This document shows, piece after piece, positions 27,121-46,959 of a stretch of DNA of 64,000 nt; the first letter of the stretch is position 1; every line of letters starts with the position of its first letter. A program made the position numbers and the translations under genes. The notes under the pieces are model-generated. The model saw only the letters and a program-made list of their open reading frames with translations, was not told the DNA's origin and made no database searches. This DNA comes from Escherichia coli O127:H6 str. E2348/69. GTDB taxonomy: Bacteria; Pseudomonadota; Gammaproteobacteria; Enterobacterales; Enterobacteriaceae. The DNA lies in the NCBI RefSeq assembly GCF_000026545.1, contig NC_011601.1; one strand, written 5' to 3'.

Positions 27121-27363
27121 TTAAGCATATTTATTGAATGTATAAGGCGAGGCGTTTTCATCCAGTATACGTAGCTTCAGACCATTACCAATCAACAATG
27201 CTTTATCTTCTTCAACCAACGTTTTTTCGGTATAAAACGAGGAGCTGACCTTAAATCCGTCGGTACACTGGTCATTTTGCGATTTTGTTGTCTTGATACT
27301 GAATGTTTTCGACATTGTGTGGCGGCGAATATCCAGTAAGTTAAATTTACCCAAATCAATCAC
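27121..27363 (-). pseudogene. Short ORF in the abrB-gltA gap, possibly a remnant of the ybgOPQD fimbrial operon
   Basis: 80-aa ORF with no signal peptide or usher/chaperone motif; the whole gap is about 630 bp where K-12 (from memory) carries a roughly 5 kb fimbrial operon. Confidence 0.25.
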
Positions 27364-27448
27364 CAGTGTTTCCGGTGAAATATTTTTTCACCATTATTAA
27401 TGGGTATTTGCATCTGGTTTAATTTTTACAATTTTTTATGTTCAGCCA

Positions 27449-27482
27449 TATAAAAAGAACCCGCTCTATTAAAGGCGGGTCC
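27449..27482 (-). terminator. gltA intrinsic terminator
   Basis: Hairpin acccgc…gcgggt followed by a T-run on the minus strand, just downstream of the gltA stop. Confidence 0.6.
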
Positions 27483-27510
27483 GGAAAGTGAACGGCTTAG
27501 CAATCAACCA

Positions 27511-38336: not shown

Positions 38337-39205
38337 TGTCCATTTTAATTGATAAAAACACCAAGGTTATCTGCCAGGGCTTTACCGGTAGCCAGGGGAC
38401 TTTCCACTCAGAACAGGCCATTGCATACGGCACTAAAATGGTTGGCGGCGTAACCCCAGGTAAAGGCGGTACTACCCACCTCGGCCTGCCGGTGTTCAAC
38501 ACCGTGCGTGAAGCTGTTGCTGCTACTGGCGCTACCGCCTCTGTTATCTACGTACCAGCACCGTTCTGCAAAGACTCCATTCTGGAAGCTATCGATGCAG
38601 GCATCAAACTGATTATCACCATCACTGAAGGCATCCCGACGCTGGATATGCTGATTGTGAAAGTGAAACTGGATGAAGCAGGCGTTCGTATGATCGGCCC
38701 GAACTGCCCAGGCGTTATCACCCCGGGGGAATGCAAAATCGGTATCCAGCCGGGTCACATTCACAAACCAGGTAAAGTGGGTATCGTTTCCCGTTCCGGT
38801 ACGCTGACCTATGAAGCGGTTAAACAGACCACGGATTACGGTTTCGGTCAGTCGACCTGTGTTGGTATCGGCGGCGACCCGATCCCTGGCTCTAACTTTA
38901 TCGACATCCTCGAAATGTTCGAAAAAGATCCGCAGACCGAAGCGATCGTGATGATCGGTGAGATCGGCGGTAGCGCTGAAGAAGAAGCAGCGGCGTACAT
39001 CAAGGAGCACGTTACCAAGCCAGTTGTGGGTTACATCGCTGGTGTGACTGCGCCGAAAGGCAAACGTATGGGTCACGCAGGTGCGATCATTGCCGGTGGT
39101 AAAGGGACTGCGGATGAGAAATTCGCAGCTCTGGAAGCCGCAGGCGTGAAAACCGTTCGCAGCCTGGCGGATATCGGTGAAGCACTGAAAACTGTTCTGC
39201 AATAA
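38336..39205 (+). CDS. sucD: Succinyl-CoA synthetase alpha subunit
   Basis: 289-aa ORF; ATG overlaps the sucC stop; CoA-binding fold, phospho-His region. Confidence 0.97.
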
Positions 39206-39305
39206 ATATCTGTAATAAGAAATAGCCCTCGCCGCTTCCCTCTACAGGAATGGCGAAGGGCTGTCGGTTTCGACATGGTTGGCCATCATATGATGGCCTT
39301 TTTTA
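39206..39305 (+). ncRNA. sdhX: SdhX (RybD) sRNA derived from the sucD 3'UTR
   Basis: About 100 nt between the sucD stop and the intrinsic terminator (ggccatcatatgatggcc plus TTTTTTAT); position matches the described 3'UTR-derived sRNA. Confidence 0.6.
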
Positions 39306-39308
39306 TGC

Positions 39309-40031
39309 TTATCGCGATGATTTTCGCTGCGCTATCAGGGTAAATTTATAGTCATCGGTATTAAAAGCGTTGCGGCTATATTCAAACACCCGGCCATCAA
39401 CTAAATATCCACGCGATACTTTTTCAAGAATCGGCTTAGTCTGGCTGATATTAAGCAGACGGCTCATTTCTTCGGTTGGCATCAGAGGAATGATTTCCTG
39501 TTCGCTACGATCGATAACCATTTTCTTCACTTCTTCAATAAAGTGATATTTCGAATTTTCCATGACCTGCCAGGTGAGATCCGGGAACAACGCAAGCGGC
39601 ATCCAGGTTTCTTCCAGCGCCATTGGCTTTTGCTTGCGATAGCGCACGCGCTTCACATGCCACACACGATCCTGTGGGGTGATTTGTAGCTGTTGCTGAA
39701 GAAAATCGTCAGCCGGAATCACTTCGAATATCAGAACTTCACTGTGTGTATCGACGTGACGGTCCGTCAGTTTTTCATCAAAACTGGTTAACTGAAAAAT
39801 ATCGTAATTGACCCGCTCTTCTTTTACGTAAGTCCCGCTGCCCTGAATACTTTCGAGGATCTGCTGTTCAACTAACTGGCGCAAAGCCTGACGCACCGTA
39901 ACCCGGCTGACGCCAAACTCTGTTTGTAGCGCTGATTCAGTGGGTAACGCATCGCCAGGTTTAAGCTCGCCACGCGCAATTTGCTCACGAATGCGATCAG
40001 CAATCTGTCGGTATAAGGGTTTCCGTCCCAT
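39309..40031 (-). CDS. mngR: GntR-family repressor MngR (FarR)
   Basis: 240-aa ORF with N-terminal GntR helix-turn-helix and UTRA-type effector domain. Confidence 0.93.
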   Translation of the reverse strand: MGRKPLYRQIADRIREQIARGELKPGDALPTESALQTEFGVSRVTVRQALRQLVEQQILESIQGSGTYVKEERVNYDIFQLTSFDEKLTDRHVDTHSEVLIFEVIPADDFLQQQLQITPQDRVWHVKRVRYRKQKPMALEETWMPLALFPDLTWQVMENSKYHFIEEVKKMVIDRSEQEIIPLMPTEEMSRLLNISQTKPILEKVSRGYLVDGRVFEYSRNAFNTDDYKFTLIAQRKSSR

Positions 40032-40140
40032 GATTTAGCATCTCATTAATACGAATTTAGCCATTATGCCCGATAAATTCATCCTGCAAATAATACAAAT
40101 ACAATACAAATAATTTCAATAAAGTGAAATTGATCACATA

Positions 40141-40531
40141 ATGGTGTTGTTTTATCGGGCACACTGGCGCGACTATAAAAACGATCAAGTGAGGATCATG
40201 ATGAATCTGACGACTCTGACCCACCGCGATGCGTTGTGTCTGAATGCGCGCTTTACCAGCCGTGAAGAGGCCATCCACGCGTTGACTCAACGTCTTGCTG
40301 CTCTGGGGAAAATTTCCAGTACTGAGCAATTTCTGAAAGAAGTGTATTGCCGTGAAAGCCTTGGCCCGACCGCCTTAGGTGAAGGGCTGGCTGTGCCGCA
40401 TGGCAAAACTGCTGCGGTAAAAGAAGCGGCGTTTGCGGTCGCCACACTCAGCGAGCCGCTTCAGTGGGAAGGCGTGGATGGCCCGGAAGCGGTTGATTTA
40501 GTGGTGTTGCTGGCGATTCCCCCCAATGAAG
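40141..40531 (+). pseudogene. mngA: mngA 5' fragment (PTS EIIA domain of the mannosylglycerate permease), truncated by the IS50-like element
   Basis: About 131 codons of the PTS fructose-type EIIA domain (…GLAVPHGKTAA… phospho-His region) run directly into the IS left end at 40532, where the frame continues into IS sequence and stops. Confidence 0.8.
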
Positions 40532-42081
40532 CTGTCTCTTATACACAAATCCCCACCCGGGGATTTGTGATGTCTGTCAGTCTGCTTTAGGGGGACTCTT
40601 TCCATCCGGTAGTTTCCTTCCTCCCCGGCAGCGATTTTTTGAACTTTTTCCTCACCCGTTGATCTTCTCTTATATTTCATTTTCTTCGGGTCTGTTATGG
40701 TACTTTCTGATTGTTATTCATGGGCTAACGAGCAGTTTGGACATGCCCGTCTCGGTGATCCGCGTCGTACACGACGCCTTGTGTCACTGGCCTCTTCTCT
40801 CGCTCAGCATGCAGGTCTTTCTATTGTGAAATCATCCCAGTCCACTGCTCAGGTTGAAGGTGCGTACCGCCTGATACGTAACCCGTCTGTGTCCCCGCAA
40901 GCCATTGCCGAAGCCGGATTTACCGCCACTGTAAGGGCATGTGAGGCTCATCCGCTGCTCCTCGCGCTGGAAGACACCACCACCATTAACTTCAGTCACA
41001 GTACGGCATCTGATGACCTGGGGAATACCACCACTAACCCGAAGACGCGCGGGCTGCTGGCTCACTCTGTCCTGATGTACGCCCCCGACAGCGCCCTGCC
41101 AGTCGGTCTTATCGAACAGCAGCGCTGGAGTCGTGCCACGGACACCTACGGTGTTAAGCACCAGCGAAAAGAACGTCCCTATGAAGAAAAAGAAAGTTAC
41201 CGCTGGCAGCAGGCTTCGGAGCGCATGGCCGAACGGCTGGGGGAGATACAGAAACGGGTAATCACTGTCTGTGACCGGGAAGCGGATATCTGGCATTACC
41301 TGCATTATAAAGTCAGCCACGGGCAGCGCTTCGTGGTGCGTGCAGCACAGAATCGCCGGCTGGAAGAAGCACCCGGCAAGCTCTTCGAACTGCCGGAAGT
41401 CCTGGCAACCGCGGGAAGCCACACGCTGAATGTGATGCAAAAAGGCGGGCGGGCAGCCCGCCAGGCCCGGATGTTCATCAGTTACAGCGAAGTCAGCATA
41501 AAAAATCCCGACAACAGCGGCCAGGCGCTCCCGCTCACGTATGTCTGTTGCCGGGAGCAGGCAGAGGACGGCGCCTGCTGGCATCTGCTGACGTCAGAAA
41601 AAGTGGCGAGTGCCGCCGATGCGCGACGTATCGTCAGCCATTACGAGCGACGCTGGCTGATAGAGGAATACCACAAGGCGTGGAAAAGTGGTGGTACATG
41701 TGTGGAATCGCTGCGAATGCAGACCCGGGATAACCTCGAGCGCATGGTGGTTATCAAGGCGTTTATCGCGGTGCGGGTGCTGGGCCTGCGGCAGGGCGGT
41801 ATCAGTGAAGAAACACAAAATGACAGCTGTGAGAAAATACTGACGCCGACAGAGTGGAAACTGCTGTGGGTTAAGCTGGAAGGAAAACCGCTTCCGTCAC
41901 AGATGCCGACACTGAAATGGGCCTGTCTGAAACTGGCGAAACTGGGGCGATGGCATGACAGCAAACGCACCGGTCGCCCCGGTTGGGTAGTCATGTGGGA
42001 TGGCTGGTTCAGACTTCAGGATATGGTTGAGGGTTACCTGGTGATGAAGTCTCTTGATCAGGAGATCTGATCAAGAGACAG
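40532..42081 (+). mobile_element. IS50-like insertion sequence (IS4 family), about 1.55 kb, with asymmetric OE-like and IE-like termini
   Basis: Left terminus CTGTCTCTTATACACAAAT (IS50 outside-end-like); right terminus on the complementary strand CTGTCTCTTGATCAGATCT (IS50 inside-end-like, two GATC sites); one 457-aa DDE transposase ORF fills the element; the 9 bp flanking the two ends differ (ccaatgaag vs cccgggcga), so there is no target-site duplication. Confidence 0.85.
40697..42070 (+). CDS. IS4-family (IS50/Tn5-like) DDE transposase
   Basis: 457-aa ORF; clear similarity to Tn5 transposase as recalled (LGDPRRT…, …LEDTT…, …VCDREADI…, …RWLIEEYHKAWKSG…), with all three DDE catalytic-residue contexts present. 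Confidence 0.85.
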   Translation: MVLSDCYSWANEQFGHARLGDPRRTRRLVSLASSLAQHAGLSIVKSSQSTAQVEGAYRLIRNPSVSPQAIAEAGFTATVRACEAHPLLLALEDTTTINFSHSTASDDLGNTTTNPKTRGLLAHSVLMYAPDSALPVGLIEQQRWSRATDTYGVKHQRKERPYEEKESYRWQQASERMAERLGEIQKRVITVCDREADIWHYLHYKVSHGQRFVVRAAQNRRLEEAPGKLFELPEVLATAGSHTLNVMQKGGRAARQARMFISYSEVSIKNPDNSGQALPLTYVCCREQAEDGACWHLLTSEKVASAADARRIVSHYERRWLIEEYHKAWKSGGTCVESLRMQTRDNLERMVVIKAFIAVRVLGLRQGGISEETQNDSCEKILTPTEWKLLWVKLEGKPLPSQMPTLKWACLKLAKLGRWHDSKRTGRPGWVVMWDGWFRLQDMVEGYLVMKSLDQEI

Positions 42082-42142
42082 CCCGGGCGAAGAGGGCTGC
42101 TTTGGTCCACGTCGATCCAATATCGACAGAGACGATTTGCAT
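42082..42142 (-). pseudogene. 20-codon 5' stub of a glmL/mutL-like gene (glutamate mutase reactivase component), cut by the IS right end
   Basis: Minus-strand ATG overlapping the glmS-like stop (TGATG) opens [20 protein letters not shown], an ASKHA-type N-terminal phosphate-1 motif, and runs directly into the IS end. Confidence 0.55.
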
Positions 42143-42591
42143 CAGATTGCCTCTTCAAGAATACGAGTATCAACGTCATGACGTTGGTTGATATCGTGGG
42201 CCATCAGCTGACAAACATCTTCTAAGTCATGACTTGGGGCAAAGACGCGATCAAATCCCATCTCTTTGAATTTGGTTTCCACGTCAGCGAAGTCATGTTT
42301 TCCGACCACCAGGTTACCGCCCACATAGAGCAGGATGTCCCCCAGTCCACGCTCGATGCAGCGTTCGCGCATGCCCAGACAGTCGATATCGCCATGCCCA
42401 TAGATAGAGGAGACGACAATCGCGTCAGCGCCAGTTTCAATGGCCGCATCAATATATTCGTCCTGGCTGACCATTACGCCCAGATTAATGACTCTGAAGC
42501 CATGGTTGCTAAAAACGCGGTCCAGAACTTTATTGCCTACTGCATGGCAGTCCGCGCCAATAACGCCAATCACAAGTGTTGCTTTCTTCAT
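42142..42591 (-). CDS. Methylaspartate (glutamate) mutase S-subunit-like cobalamin-binding protein
   Basis: 149 aa from [21 protein letters not shown]… with an AAGGA ribosome-binding site 7 nt upstream; carries the DxHxxG B12-binding motif (DCHAVG) and is closely similar to the clostridial GlmS/MutS S chain as I recall it. Confidence 0.75.
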
Positions 42592-43137
42592 GGGTAATCC
42601 TTTGTAAGACAGAGAGTAAAATAAGTTACACACGTCGTATTTATGGCCGTTCATAACGGCACAGGTTTAATATCACAGGAGTGTCTTTATCTGACCGTAA
42701 TGTTGCAATTGATCTATTTTCAAAATGTCTTTCGGGAAATGATTGTTTAAAGTATGTTGTTAAATTCTCATGTTAATTCAGTGTGTTATGTCAACTAATG
42801 TCATGAATGTTAAATTTTTAAAATTAACTTGATTTGGTGTATTGAGGTATTTGTGATCTACTTCTAATTTGCATTTTAGTGATATGGGTTTAGCCATGAG
42901 TAAATGCATTTCATAAAATTTAAGTCGAATTTCACTGCAATTCATCTCTGCTTAATGTAAAAATAATGTTGAAAATAACAAATGGTTAATGATTCATGCG
43001 AATTATGACCTTAGTTAGCTCTTTTGATTTTTCGTAAAAAAGAGAGGTACATGAAGGTGCTACCAGTATGAGTAACGTTAATCAAAGGTTTTATTACCTC
43101 TGGCAATAACGCAGGCCATTTTCGCGACTGGGTGGAT

Positions 43138-43560
43138 TTAATCAGTATAATCCTCATACAATAGTTCACGATTAACTGAACCGTTAACGGGGATTTGGTG
43201 TTGAAATTTAGAAATGGCGGAGTCAATTAATGAAGACAATATCGAAAAAATGACAGTGTCAGAATTAATTTCAATTAATCCTTCTCGTTGTTGACCAAAA
43301 AAGATATTTATCTTGATTTCATTTGTACTACGGCAATCAATATGTAGTAATTTTTGATCGCTGAGATTTTCTGTTTCATAAATGTTTTTGGCGATAGTCG
43401 GATGAATTGATGCCAGACATCTGCTCAGATAAGCCAGTTCCTTTAGGGAACACCCCGCTGAGTAGAGGATGTCAGAGAATTTTTGTGTGTCAACTGTTGT
43501 CTCTGAAGCGTATGTTGCATTGACAGGAAGGGTGTTGAAAGAGATTTGAGATGGGATCAT
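43138..43560 (-). CDS. Hypothetical protein, 140 aa, no recognisable domain; downstream gene of the AT-rich two-gene cassette
   Basis: ORF-track ORF MIPSQISFNTLPVNATYASE…; GGAAAG about 10 nt upstream; AT-rich codon usage unlike the flanking core genes; no signal peptide or TM segment apparent. Confidence 0.5.
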   Translation of the reverse strand: MIPSQISFNTLPVNATYASETTVDTQKFSDILYSAGCSLKELAYLSRCLASIHPTIAKNIYETENLSDQKLLHIDCRSTNEIKINIFFGQQREGLIEINSDTVIFSILSSLIDSAISKFQHQIPVNGSVNRELLYEDYTD

Positions 43561-43640
43561 TATTTAAATCTTTCCGTGAGTAATAAAAATTAATCCCCGG
43601 GCATTGTTTAGCAATATTTGCCACAGGGAATATATAAAAA

Positions 43641-44585
43641 TTAAAGTATTTGATTGGCATCGGTTAACTGATCAATAACCAGTGCCAGATTGGTAAACAT
43701 TTTGAAAAAGCGATACTGGCTCGGAATATCTCTTTCAAAGACGAAACATTCAATGTCATTGTTTGAAAAATAAAGGACTAGTGTTGCTGATTCGTCAGGA
43801 AAAATATGGAAATATATCTGGTTACCAGAAGGAGGATAGTCCAGAAGAAGGGTATCTTTGCCCGTCACATACCTGTTGTGGTCGTGGATGCTGCGCTCAC
43901 ACTTCATCAGAGGTGTCATGATACTCATGTATTCATCTGATGTTAATATATTAAAATCACCATCCATTTTAAAGAAACGATAAAGTAACAGTACATCCTC
44001 TTGCGTAACCGGTTCGTTTGTTTTTAGAGGGAAATAAGTGGGAACCAGAAGATGAGGTTCTAATCTATTTTGTTGAGCGCTATAACTAAATTTGAACATA
44101 AATTCCGGATCGCTCATCAATTGAGCGACATAATTATGCCTGGCTTCAAAAATTTTAACTTTTATCAGGTTAAATAAGTCTGTTTCGTCATCCTGTATTA
44201 AAAGACATTGGCCATAGCAGTCAGGCTTTTTTTCATTATAAGCAGAAACGGTTATTCTGTCAGGAGTGTCAACGTTATATCCAAAAGCCAGATAGTGACC
44301 GTCCTCATCGAGATTTGTTTCCAGGTTATTTAAATTTATCACATGAAGTGTTTGCAATGCTGATTCAATGAGCTGTTGACTCTCTGAGGTAAATGTTTCG
44401 CGCTGCGTTGTATAAAGTGTATCGATTCCAACGACTATCCGATATGGGTCAAGGATGGCGGCAATCATCTTTATTACCTGCACAGTCACGGGTGATGTCA
44501 TTGATTCGTTATCTGTTTTTAGAGGATCATTAGATGGCCAACCTGAGAAGCGATTGACAGCCGAACCGATATTATCAGGACTCAT
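43641..44585 (-). CDS. Hypothetical protein, 314 aa, no recognisable domain; upstream gene of the AT-rich two-gene cassette
   Basis: ORF-track ORF MSPDNIGSAVNRFSGWPSNDPL…; GAGG 8 nt upstream of the ATG; AT-rich; acidic, no TM segments; 80-bp gap to the 140-aa ORF on the same strand. Confidence 0.55.
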   Translation of the reverse strand: MSPDNIGSAVNRFSGWPSNDPLKTDNESMTSPVTVQVIKMIAAILDPYRIVVGIDTLYTTQRETFTSESQQLIESALQTLHVINLNNLETNLDEDGHYLAFGYNVDTPDRITVSAYNEKKPDCYGQCLLIQDDETDLFNLIKVKIFEARHNYVAQLMSDPEFMFKFSYSAQQNRLEPHLLVPTYFPLKTNEPVTQEDVLLLYRFFKMDGDFNILTSDEYMSIMTPLMKCERSIHDHNRYVTGKDTLLLDYPPSGNQIYFHIFPDESATLVLYFSNNDIECFVFERDIPSQYRFFKMFTNLALVIDQLTDANQIL

Positions 44586-45039
44586 AGCAGCAACCTCATT
44601 GTAATCAAGCGAGGCGCTGAGCGTACTCGGCTATAGAAAAACTAACTTGCAAAAATCGCTCATTTTTCATTTATCAGGCGAAAGTGGTCTCTGTTCACTC
44701 AGAAACAATCACTCCCGCTAAGTCATACCTGTTTCATCGATACATTTAAGTGATTATTACTAATGAAACAATAACATAACGGGCTTACGGCCGGTGCTCA
44801 TAAAGGCAACAATCAATTAACTTTGATAAAAATATGTTATGTAAAATAGCAACAAATTGGCTAATCTAATCAATTGGTATTATAAAAAGTGGATAAGGCG
44901 GTTCTGTTAAATAAAACACTGGTTTTTTATCTATACCTTTTCATTGTAATAATTGTGTTGCATAAATATTTCACAATAAATTAACAATAAAATCACCAAT
45001 GATCTATGGTTTATACATAATTAACATATTTGGTTGGTT

Positions 45040-45053
45040 TTGATATAAATCAA
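45040..45053. promoter_or_regulatory. FNR-box-like site (TTGAT-N4-ATCAA) in the cydAB upstream regulatory region
   Basis: ttgatataaatcaa is an exact match to the FNR half-site consensus spacing, within the long AT-rich cydA upstream region. Confidence 0.45.
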
Positions 45054-45390
45054 TTTTTAATTCTTGAAAAAAATCTGCAAAACACGATAAATTGTCGTAG
45101 ATCAAATTGGTGAGATCGTGACAATTTCGCTATAAATTGATCACTGTCGAAAAATGCAAATTTGCTCAATAAAAACCTGTTTATTGTAAGGATTTTGCGG
45201 CGTAATATAATTACGGGATCAATTTGGTTTATTCATTAACATATTTGTAACTTTTTTATCATTGTCTTTTCCTCTTTTGATGAAATGGCAACGATAGAGG
45301 CGAGCAAATAATTTTGTATTGGGGCATGCGTGTGACCCTTTCTAACGGGGTTCACTCTCGGAGTCTTCATGCGATGAGCAAGGAGTCATG

Positions 45391-46959
45391 ATGTTAGATA
45401 TAGTCGAACTGTCGCGCTTACAGTTTGCCTTGACCGCGATGTACCACTTCCTTTTTGTGCCACTGACGCTCGGTATGGCGTTCCTGCTGGCCATTATGGA
45501 AACGGTCTACGTCCTTTCCGGCAAACAGATTTATAAAGATATGACCAAGTTCTGGGGCAAGTTGTTTGGTATCAACTTCGCTCTGGGTGTGGCTACCGGT
45601 CTGACCATGGAGTTCCAGTTCGGGACTAACTGGTCTTACTATTCCCACTATGTAGGGGATATCTTCGGTGCGCCGCTGGCAATCGAAGGTCTGATGGCCT
45701 TCTTCCTCGAATCCACCTTTGTAGGTCTGTTCTTCTTCGGTTGGGATCGTCTGGGTAAAGTTCAGCATATGTGTGTCACCTGGCTGGTGGCGCTCGGTTC
45801 AAACCTGTCCGCACTGTGGATTCTGGTTGCGAACGGCTGGATGCAAAACCCAATCGCGTCCGATTTCAACTTTGAAACTATGCGTATGGAGATGGTGAGC
45901 TTCTCCGAGCTGGTGCTTAACCCGGTTGCTCAGGTGAAATTCGTTCACACTGTAGCGTCTGGTTATGTGACTGGCGCGATGTTCATCCTCGGTATCAGCG
46001 CATGGTATATGCTGAAAGGTCGTGACTTCGCCTTCGCTAAACGCTCCTTTGCTATCGCTGCCAGCTTCGGTATGGCTGCCGTTCTGTCTGTTATTGTTCT
46101 GGGTGATGAATCTGGTTACGAAATGGGCGACGTGCAGAAAACCAAACTGGCTGCTATTGAAGCCGAGTGGGAAACGCAACCTGCGCCTGCTGCCTTTACT
46201 CTGTTCGGCATTCCTGATCAGGAAGAGGAGACGAACAAATTTGCGATCCAGATCCCTTACGCGCTGGGCATCATTGCAACGCGTTCCGTGGATACTCCAG
46301 TTATCGGCCTGAAAGAACTGATGGTGCAGCATGAAGAACGCATTCGTAACGGGATGAAGGCGTACTCTCTGCTCGAGCAACTGCGTTCTGGTTCTACCGA
46401 CCAGGCGGTTCGTGACCAGTTCAATAGCATGAAGAAAGACCTCGGTTACGGTCTGCTGCTGAAACGCTATACGCCAAACGTGGCTGATGCGACTGAAGCG
46501 CAGATTCAACAGGCAACCAAAGACTCCATTCCGCGTGTAGCGCCGCTGTACTTCGCGTTCCGTATTATGGTGGCGTGTGGCTTCCTGCTGCTGGCAATCA
46601 TCGCGCTCTCTTTCTGGAGTGTCATCCGCAACCGCATTGGCGAGAAAAAATGGCTGCTGCGCGCCGCGCTGTACGGTATTCCGCTGCCGTGGATTGCTGT
46701 AGAAGCGGGCTGGTTCGTGGCTGAATATGGCCGCCAACCGTGGGCTATCGGTGAAGTGCTGCCGACAGCTGTGGCGAACTCGTCACTGACCGCAGGCGAT
46801 CTCATCTTCTCAATGGTGCTGATTTGCGGCCTGTATACCCTGTTCCTGGTGGCAGAATTGTTCTTAATGTTCAAGTTTGCACGCCTCGGCCCAAGCAGCC
46901 TGAAAACCGGTCGCTATCACTTTGAGCAGTCTTCCACGACTACTCAGCCGGCACGCTAA
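45391..46959 (+). CDS. cydA: Cytochrome bd-I ubiquinol oxidase subunit I
   Basis: 522 aa from [28 protein letters not shown]…; the supplied ORF starts one Met earlier. Confidence 0.96.

Follow-up and report, generated by a model that had tools for sequence, protein, structure and literature searches.

The insertion sequence IS50 of Tn5 carries one transposase gene, read from an outside end towards an inside end, and duplicates 9 bp of target DNA. For Tn5, adjacent deletions are documented that start exactly at an IS50/Tn5 end and leave the element intact (PMC2723962). A second point of comparison is offered by the IS-bounded deletions of IS-rich pathogens, in which a lone intact IS, flanked by no target duplication, stands between two truncated genes that relatives carry far from each other.

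The locus described here shows the same arrangement and does not differ from those deletions in kind. It lies in a window of 64,000 nucleotides from the chromosome of the reference EPEC strain, Escherichia coli O127:H6 E2348/69 (NC_011601.1), where an IS separates a fragment of mngA from a fragment of glmL. A preliminary description of the window had placed an IS50-like element at a deletion junction between these two genes. The finding is an ordinary one, since it concerns a catalogued element in a reference genome studied for many years, and deletions bounded by an IS are routine.

Identity of the element and its likeness to IS50

The element occupies positions 40532-42081 on the plus strand and is a complete, 1,550-bp ISEc13, with a 100% full-length match to annotated ISEc13 copies, others in E2348/69 among them. 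It is thus an already known element, recorded in RefSeq annotation under the ISfinder name as used by NCBI PGAP, and is placed in the IS50 group of the IS4 family. Its place in NZ_LT827011.1 is 680532-682081, at 100% identity, window position 1 corresponding to record position 640001. Searching the literature for the name ISEc13 returned resistome and mobilome surveys as the sole results.

For comparison with IS50, we used the copy located beside aph(3')-IIa on plasmid pMAK2, whose ends, CTGACTCTTATACACAAGT and CTGTCTCTTGATCAGATCT, lie 1,534 bp apart. The left terminal repeat of ISEc13, CTGTCTCTTATACACAAAT (40532-40550, plus strand), resembles the outside end of IS50 and agrees with it at 17 of 19 positions. 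The right terminal repeat, CTGTCTCTTGATCAGATCT (42063-42081, minus strand), is identical to the inside end at all 19 positions, including the GATC sites. The earlier reading of the left end as OE-like and the right end as IE-like is therefore borne out. Terminal inverted repeats of the CTGTCTCTT type are present at both ISEc13 ends. Across the 64-kb window, the end pattern was matched twice, both times at the termini of the element, against 0.11 matches expected by chance.

ISEc13 also shares the architecture of IS50, with one transposase read from the outside-end-like to the inside-end-like terminus. The transposase gene (40697-42070, plus strand) is intact and encodes 457 amino acids, and its product scores 514 bits against the NCBIfam model transpos_IS4_3 (cutoff 160). 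Its identity to Tn5 Tnp is 42.6%, and Tn5 transposase structures are matched at E=6e-84. The catalytic residues D93, D193, and E323 align with D97, D188, and E326 of Tn5, while Y316, R319, and K330 of the YREK motif align with Y319, R322, and K333. The transposase had been described as diverged from Tn5 Tnp with all DDE contexts kept, and the alignment agrees on both counts. The same protein, WP_000244358.1, is encoded by ISEc13 copies in many E. coli strains.

Several features set ISEc13 apart from IS50. At the DNA level, the two are only ~54% identical (relative to the pMAK2 copy), and ISEc13 is the longer element (1,550 bp versus 1,534 bp). The start methionine of the Tn5 inhibitor, Met56, has no counterpart in ISEc13, where Q52 is found instead. 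Near its right end, ISEc13 carries a perfect 13-bp hairpin, GTCTCTTGATCAG / CTGATCAAGAGAC (42049-42079), whereas IS50 has just a shorter palindrome at this place. The right terminal repeat and an inverted copy lying immediately inside it make up this hairpin, which overlaps the final codons of the transposase gene and holds two of the three GATC sites of that stretch. Judged by its sequence, ISEc13 is a relative of IS50, and is neither IS50 itself nor a new IS.

The element is widespread. At least 80% of its length is covered in 873 of 5,426 complete E. coli genomes, and the three E2348/69 chromosome assemblies contain 27, 29, and 30 ISEc13-matching places, a count that the preliminary description had called for. 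The numbers may differ because laboratory lineages are still gaining copies by transposition or losing them, or because of the assemblies themselves. The E2348/69 plasmid pMAR2 has two matching places, one of which is merely a decayed IS4-family fragment. Recent activity of ISEc13 is argued for by the intact transposase together with the identity or near-identity of all its copies.

Many E. coli plasmids carry an ISEc13-like derivative of ~955 bp that is internally deleted but retains both ends, at ~97% identity. Its annotation reads 'IS4/Tn5 family transposase DNA-binding protein' and nothing more. It could be a non-autonomous derivative.

The junction in E2348/69 and the interval lost

In the RefSeq annotation, the gene order around the junction is sucABCD, mngR, the mngA fragment, the ISEc13 transposase gene, glmS, two hypothetical genes, and cydAB. 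Upstream of the element, mngR (39309-40031, minus strand) is intact in both the RefSeq annotation and the ORF list. The mngA 5' fragment (40201-40531, plus strand) retains 331 nt that encode part of the PTS IIA domain, as judged by NCBIfam, RefSeq, and mapping to strain 2022H047. It covers only positions 1-111 of the 639 in the NCBIfam profile PRK09765, and RefSeq labels it 'fructose PTS transporter subunit IIA, incomplete, missing C-terminus'. The gene breaks after nt 331, in codon 111 if numbering begins at the RefSeq start (40201). With the upstream ATG (40141) as the start, the break falls in codon 131, as had been proposed. The reading frame continues into the IS and stops at 40588-40590, which adds 19 IS-encoded residues and gives a predicted product of 129 amino acids.

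On the other side of the element, mapping to 2022H047 identifies the first 61 nt of glmL (42082-42142, minus strand), the gene for the methylaspartate mutase accessory protein. These correspond to 20 codons plus 1 nt, in line with the break at codon 20 of an opposite-strand glmL-like gene given in the preliminary description. The truncated GlmL would consist of 20 residues followed by three IS-encoded codons and a stop. The adjacent glmS (42142-42591, minus strand), encoding the S subunit of methylaspartate (glutamate) mutase, is intact (NCBIfam PRK02261, 253 bits; RefSeq).

Beyond glmS, RefSeq annotates two hypothetical genes on the minus strand, at 43138-43560 (140 amino acids) and 43641-44585 (314 amino acids). 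Neither matched an NCBIfam or Pfam family, and an Rfam search over 39000-45500 gave no match. Both genes form the cydA-proximal end of the glutamate-mutase island in all island-bearing strains.

To define what is missing, we compared both flanks with related genomes. For the left flank, comprising the end of sucD, mngR, and the mngA fragment, the best non-self matches were 2022H047 and 2022H048 (99.8%) and A25 and DCE7 (99.6%), and mngA is intact in all four. Against 2022H047, the ~7.7 kb of left flank nearest the IS show 99.6% identity and the distal 12 kb show 98.9%; against A25, identity is 99.4% over the full 20 kb. The first 6 kb of the right flank are 99.6% identical to 2022H047 and 99.8% identical to A25.

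The sucD-cydA interval of 2022H047 is fully populated. It begins with mngR, mngA, mngB, rtcB, hutU, a gene for a cytosine-type permease, hutD, hutI, and hutG, and proceeds through genes for a HAL-family ammonia-lyase and a LysR regulator, cobO, and a gene for a class I fumarate hydratase. A dicarboxylate/amino-acid symporter gene, a DUF4387 gene, an AtuA-family gene, and a methylaspartate ammonia-lyase gene follow, and the interval ends with glmE, glmL, glmS, and the two hypothetical genes.

The 40-nt ends of both window flanks occur once each in the 2022H047 reference, where their order and orientation are those of the window and 25,025 bp separate them (record positions 3094200-3119224). Relative to this strain, E2348/69 has lost exactly 25,025 bp, beginning at nt 332 of mngA and ending at nt 62 of glmL, and ISEc13 sits exactly between the two ends. 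The proposed deletion junction is thereby established, and the interval is mapped by the flank alignment that had been suggested for it. The loss comprises the remainder of mngA, mngB, rtcB, the hut operon in full, the LysR regulator gene, cobO, the class I fumarate hydratase gene, the symporter gene, the DUF4387 gene, the AtuA-family gene, the methylaspartate ammonia-lyase gene, glmE, and nearly all of glmL. The earlier account had named mngB, what remained of mngA, and a portion of an accessory island. These are indeed gone, but the extent was underestimated, as rtcB and hut are included. Given the colinearity and identity of the flanks, the simplest history is that a 2022H047-type chromosome lost the interval by deletion.

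We then searched 5,426 complete E. coli genomes with a 600-nt query of the two real junctions. Only the three E2348/69 chromosomes matched it at 50% coverage and 100% identity; the next-best matches were internally deleted ISEc13 derivatives on plasmids. The same junctions are found in CP059840.2, LT827011.1, and LT903847.1, which are separate E2348/69 chromosomes, and in GCA_053076565.1. None of the 5,426 genomes has one junction without the other, and none has mngA and glmL joined without the IS, an arrangement that would have pointed to a natural adjacency of the two genes. The truncated MngA protein starting at 40201 is present in 9 public contigs, all with the deleted layout or ending inside the IS, while versions starting at 40141 and 40198 had no match in the public-contig look-up. 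Among the genomes searched, the 25,025-bp loss from mngA to glmL is particular to E2348/69.

The sucD-cydA interval is variable in general, with at least five layouts. mngRAB alone is found in K-12, the island alone in O157:H7 and THO-008, and rtcB, hut, and the island but no mng genes in NRZ96052a; 2022H047 has everything, and E2348/69 and A25 carry two different deletions. K-12-type and island-type sequences are only ~80% identical over the 366 nt that precede cydA. The deletion of A25 is independent; it removes 17.3 kb from just past rtcB into glmE and is bridged by a 281-bp AT-rich filler (27210-27490 of the piece examined) that 2022H047 lacks and that has no relation to ISEc13. We also considered mngRAB and the glutamate-mutase island as alternative alleles brought together by transfer, a reading that we rejected because 2022H047 and A25 carry both.

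Target duplications and target choice of ISEc13

No direct repeat of 7, 8, or 9 bp flanks the window copy. The 9-mers outside the two ends had been reported to differ, and they do; so do the 8-mers, CAATGAAG on the left (40524-40531) and CCCGGGCG on the right (42082-42089). To place this in context, we surveyed the flanks of 24 other ISEc13 copies in 14 records. An 8-bp direct repeat was found at 12 distinct sites, a 9-bp repeat at three copies, and a 7-bp repeat, within an A-run, at one. Two copies had no repeat, three were left unscored because of a variant right end, and the remainder were the same sites again. The missing duplication at the window copy was thus correctly noted, but the 9-bp length expected by analogy with Tn5 and IS50 does not hold for ISEc13, which usually duplicates 8 bp. 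The lack of a duplication here reflects the history of this copy, not its family.

The two copies without a duplication come from different replicons. One lies on pMAR2, the EAF plasmid (15027-16576 of the piece examined), between hok and finO, with flanks TGCAAGGA and GTCATACA; the other is chromosomal, in another strain (CP148541.1). Their existence shows that IS-bounded rearrangements are recurrent for ISEc13, and the pMAR2 copy shows that junctions of this type arise repeatedly where the element is abundant.

Both 8-mers at the window copy could be traced to intact genes. CAATGAAG maps to intact mngA in the ancestral context cccccCAATGAAGcgggt, and CCCGGGCG maps to intact glmL in the ancestral context tccccctCCCGGGCGaagaggg. 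Hence CAATGAAG is the surviving copy of the mngA-site target, used either for insertion or for strand transfer, and CCCGGGCG is the surviving copy of the glmL-site target.

ISEc13 sites have a symmetric target in common, CCCCT-N8-AGGGG, a short palindrome that holds the element with few exceptions in the copies surveyed. A symmetrised position matrix, derived from independent ISEc13 sites, was used to score all positions of a 33-kb intact reference. With a matrix from the first 8 sites, the mngA site ranked 37th and the glmL site 10th of 32,974 positions; with one from the clean 12 distinct sites, the ranks were 31 and 24 of 32,974. Both ancestral breakpoints fall within the top 0.1% of positions and are good ISEc13 target sites. 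This argues against random illegitimate recombination or a misjoin as the origin of the junctions. The quality of the two targets fits two genuine insertion events, although it does not separate the two IS-based routes considered below.

The combination of the CCCCT-N8-AGGGG target with 8-bp duplications, despite ends so close to those of IS50, is the only mildly new point in these data. It raises the possibility, which we put forward tentatively and rate as rather doubtful, that ISEc13 is a natural IS50 relative with a much stricter target choice than Tn5. If so, strict targeting would explain why the same intergenic spots are occupied repeatedly across strains; if it also proves undescribed, ISEc13 would be a helpful counterpart in studies of target measurement and target selection by Tn5-type transposases.

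Many ISEc13 sites resemble hairpins just past gene ends. Copies in different strains occupy three of the same locations, between agp and yccJ, between ybaY and the MGMT gene, and beside ibs toxin genes. The shared spots carry now an 8-bp and now a 9-bp repeat, which suggests independent insertions at hot spots.

Origin and consequences of the deletion

That an IS-associated deletion took place is well supported, as the preliminary description had anticipated. It had offered two mechanisms, an adjacent deletion and recombination between two IS copies. Both would end with a single copy of each target 8-mer beside the IS, and the final sequence is the same for the two.

The reading we put first, at about even odds, is that two ISEc13 copies inserted in the same orientation and then recombined. 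The ancestor of E2348/69 would have had the full 2022H047-type layout from sucD to cydA. As ISEc13 multiplied in the lineage, copies would have inserted in the same orientation at two good targets, CAATGAAG in mngA and CCCGGGCG in glmL. The hypothetical precursor at the mngA site would read GATCAAGAGACAG-CAATGAAG-CGGGTACTACG, with the right end of the IS followed by the rest of mngA, and that at the glmL site GTCCCCCT-CCCGGGCG-CTGTCTCTTATACAC, with the rest of glmL followed by the left end of the IS. Homologous recombination between these 1.55-kb direct repeats would then have excised one IS copy along with the intervening 25,025 bp, and the single remaining IS would have its left flank from the first insertion and its right flank from the second.

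Substrates for such recombination are plentiful, given the 27-30 ISEc13 places per E2348/69 chromosome. We estimate that, with ~29 copies in 4.85 Mb, chance alone would place roughly two pairs in the same orientation within 25 kb, and close pairs of this kind should collapse readily. A single-insertion precursor, either mngA::ISEc13 or glmL::ISEc13 with the rest of the gene, was found in none of the genomes or contigs searched, which makes the two-copy intermediate hypothetical. We infer both the two former copies and the role of recombination, rather than the transposase, in making the deletion.

Nearly as plausible, in our view, is a deletion made by the transposase in one step. Here, a single ISEc13 at either site, inserted with a normal duplication, would have stayed in place while one of its ends was transferred to the second site, with loss of the 25 kb. 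One insertion suffices for this route, and it accords with the lack of any two-copy intermediate in the genomes and contigs searched. The ISEc13 transposase is intact and the copies are identical or nearly so, Tn5 provides the precedent of deletions that run from the exact IS end and spare the element, and the distal breakpoint is a good target, as expected of a site chosen by a transposase. For cut-and-paste elements of the IS50/IS10 type, however, adjacent deletions are much rarer than simple insertion, and the end structure is the same as that left by recombination, so nothing in the sequence favours the one-step route. Our slight lean towards recombination between two copies comes from this rarity and from the pairs expected by chance.

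A horizontal origin is improbable. It would require a chimera between an mng-type chromosome with the IS in mngA and incoming island-type DNA with its IS in glmL, the crossovers falling within the element and further downstream, close to cydA. The high variability of sucD-cydA, and the presence of the island without mng in O157:H7, THO-008, and NRZ96052a, lend this some plausibility, but 2022H047 and A25, the nearest relatives on both flanks, hold both mngRAB and the island. No import is needed when the closest relatives carry the two together.

A misjoin of flanks that are not adjacent in the cell would be the classic error at a 1.55-kb repeat present in ~29 places, but it is very unlikely, since four assemblies have identical junctions, the flanks keep the ancestral order and orientation, which is not expected of a random misjoin, and the concordant E2348/69 assemblies contain no second mngA or glmL fragment, each occurring in one place per record.

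Whichever route was taken, the deletion explains three features of E2348/69, namely its dead mngA, its orphan mngR, and its orphan glmS. MngR is now a repressor whose target operon is destroyed, and GlmS is orphaned because glmE is gone. The locus adds one more example of the erosion of the E2348/69 genome by ISEc13 expansion and poses no new mechanistic question.

Inferring from annotation, E2348/69 should be unable to take up and hydrolyse mannosylglycerate, and should lack both the hut pathway of histidine utilisation and the B12-dependent methylaspartate (mesaconate) route of glutamate breakdown. These predicted losses help in reading the metabolic phenotypes of the strain, as the mng, hut, and methylaspartate-route genes that it has lost are carried by its nearest relatives.
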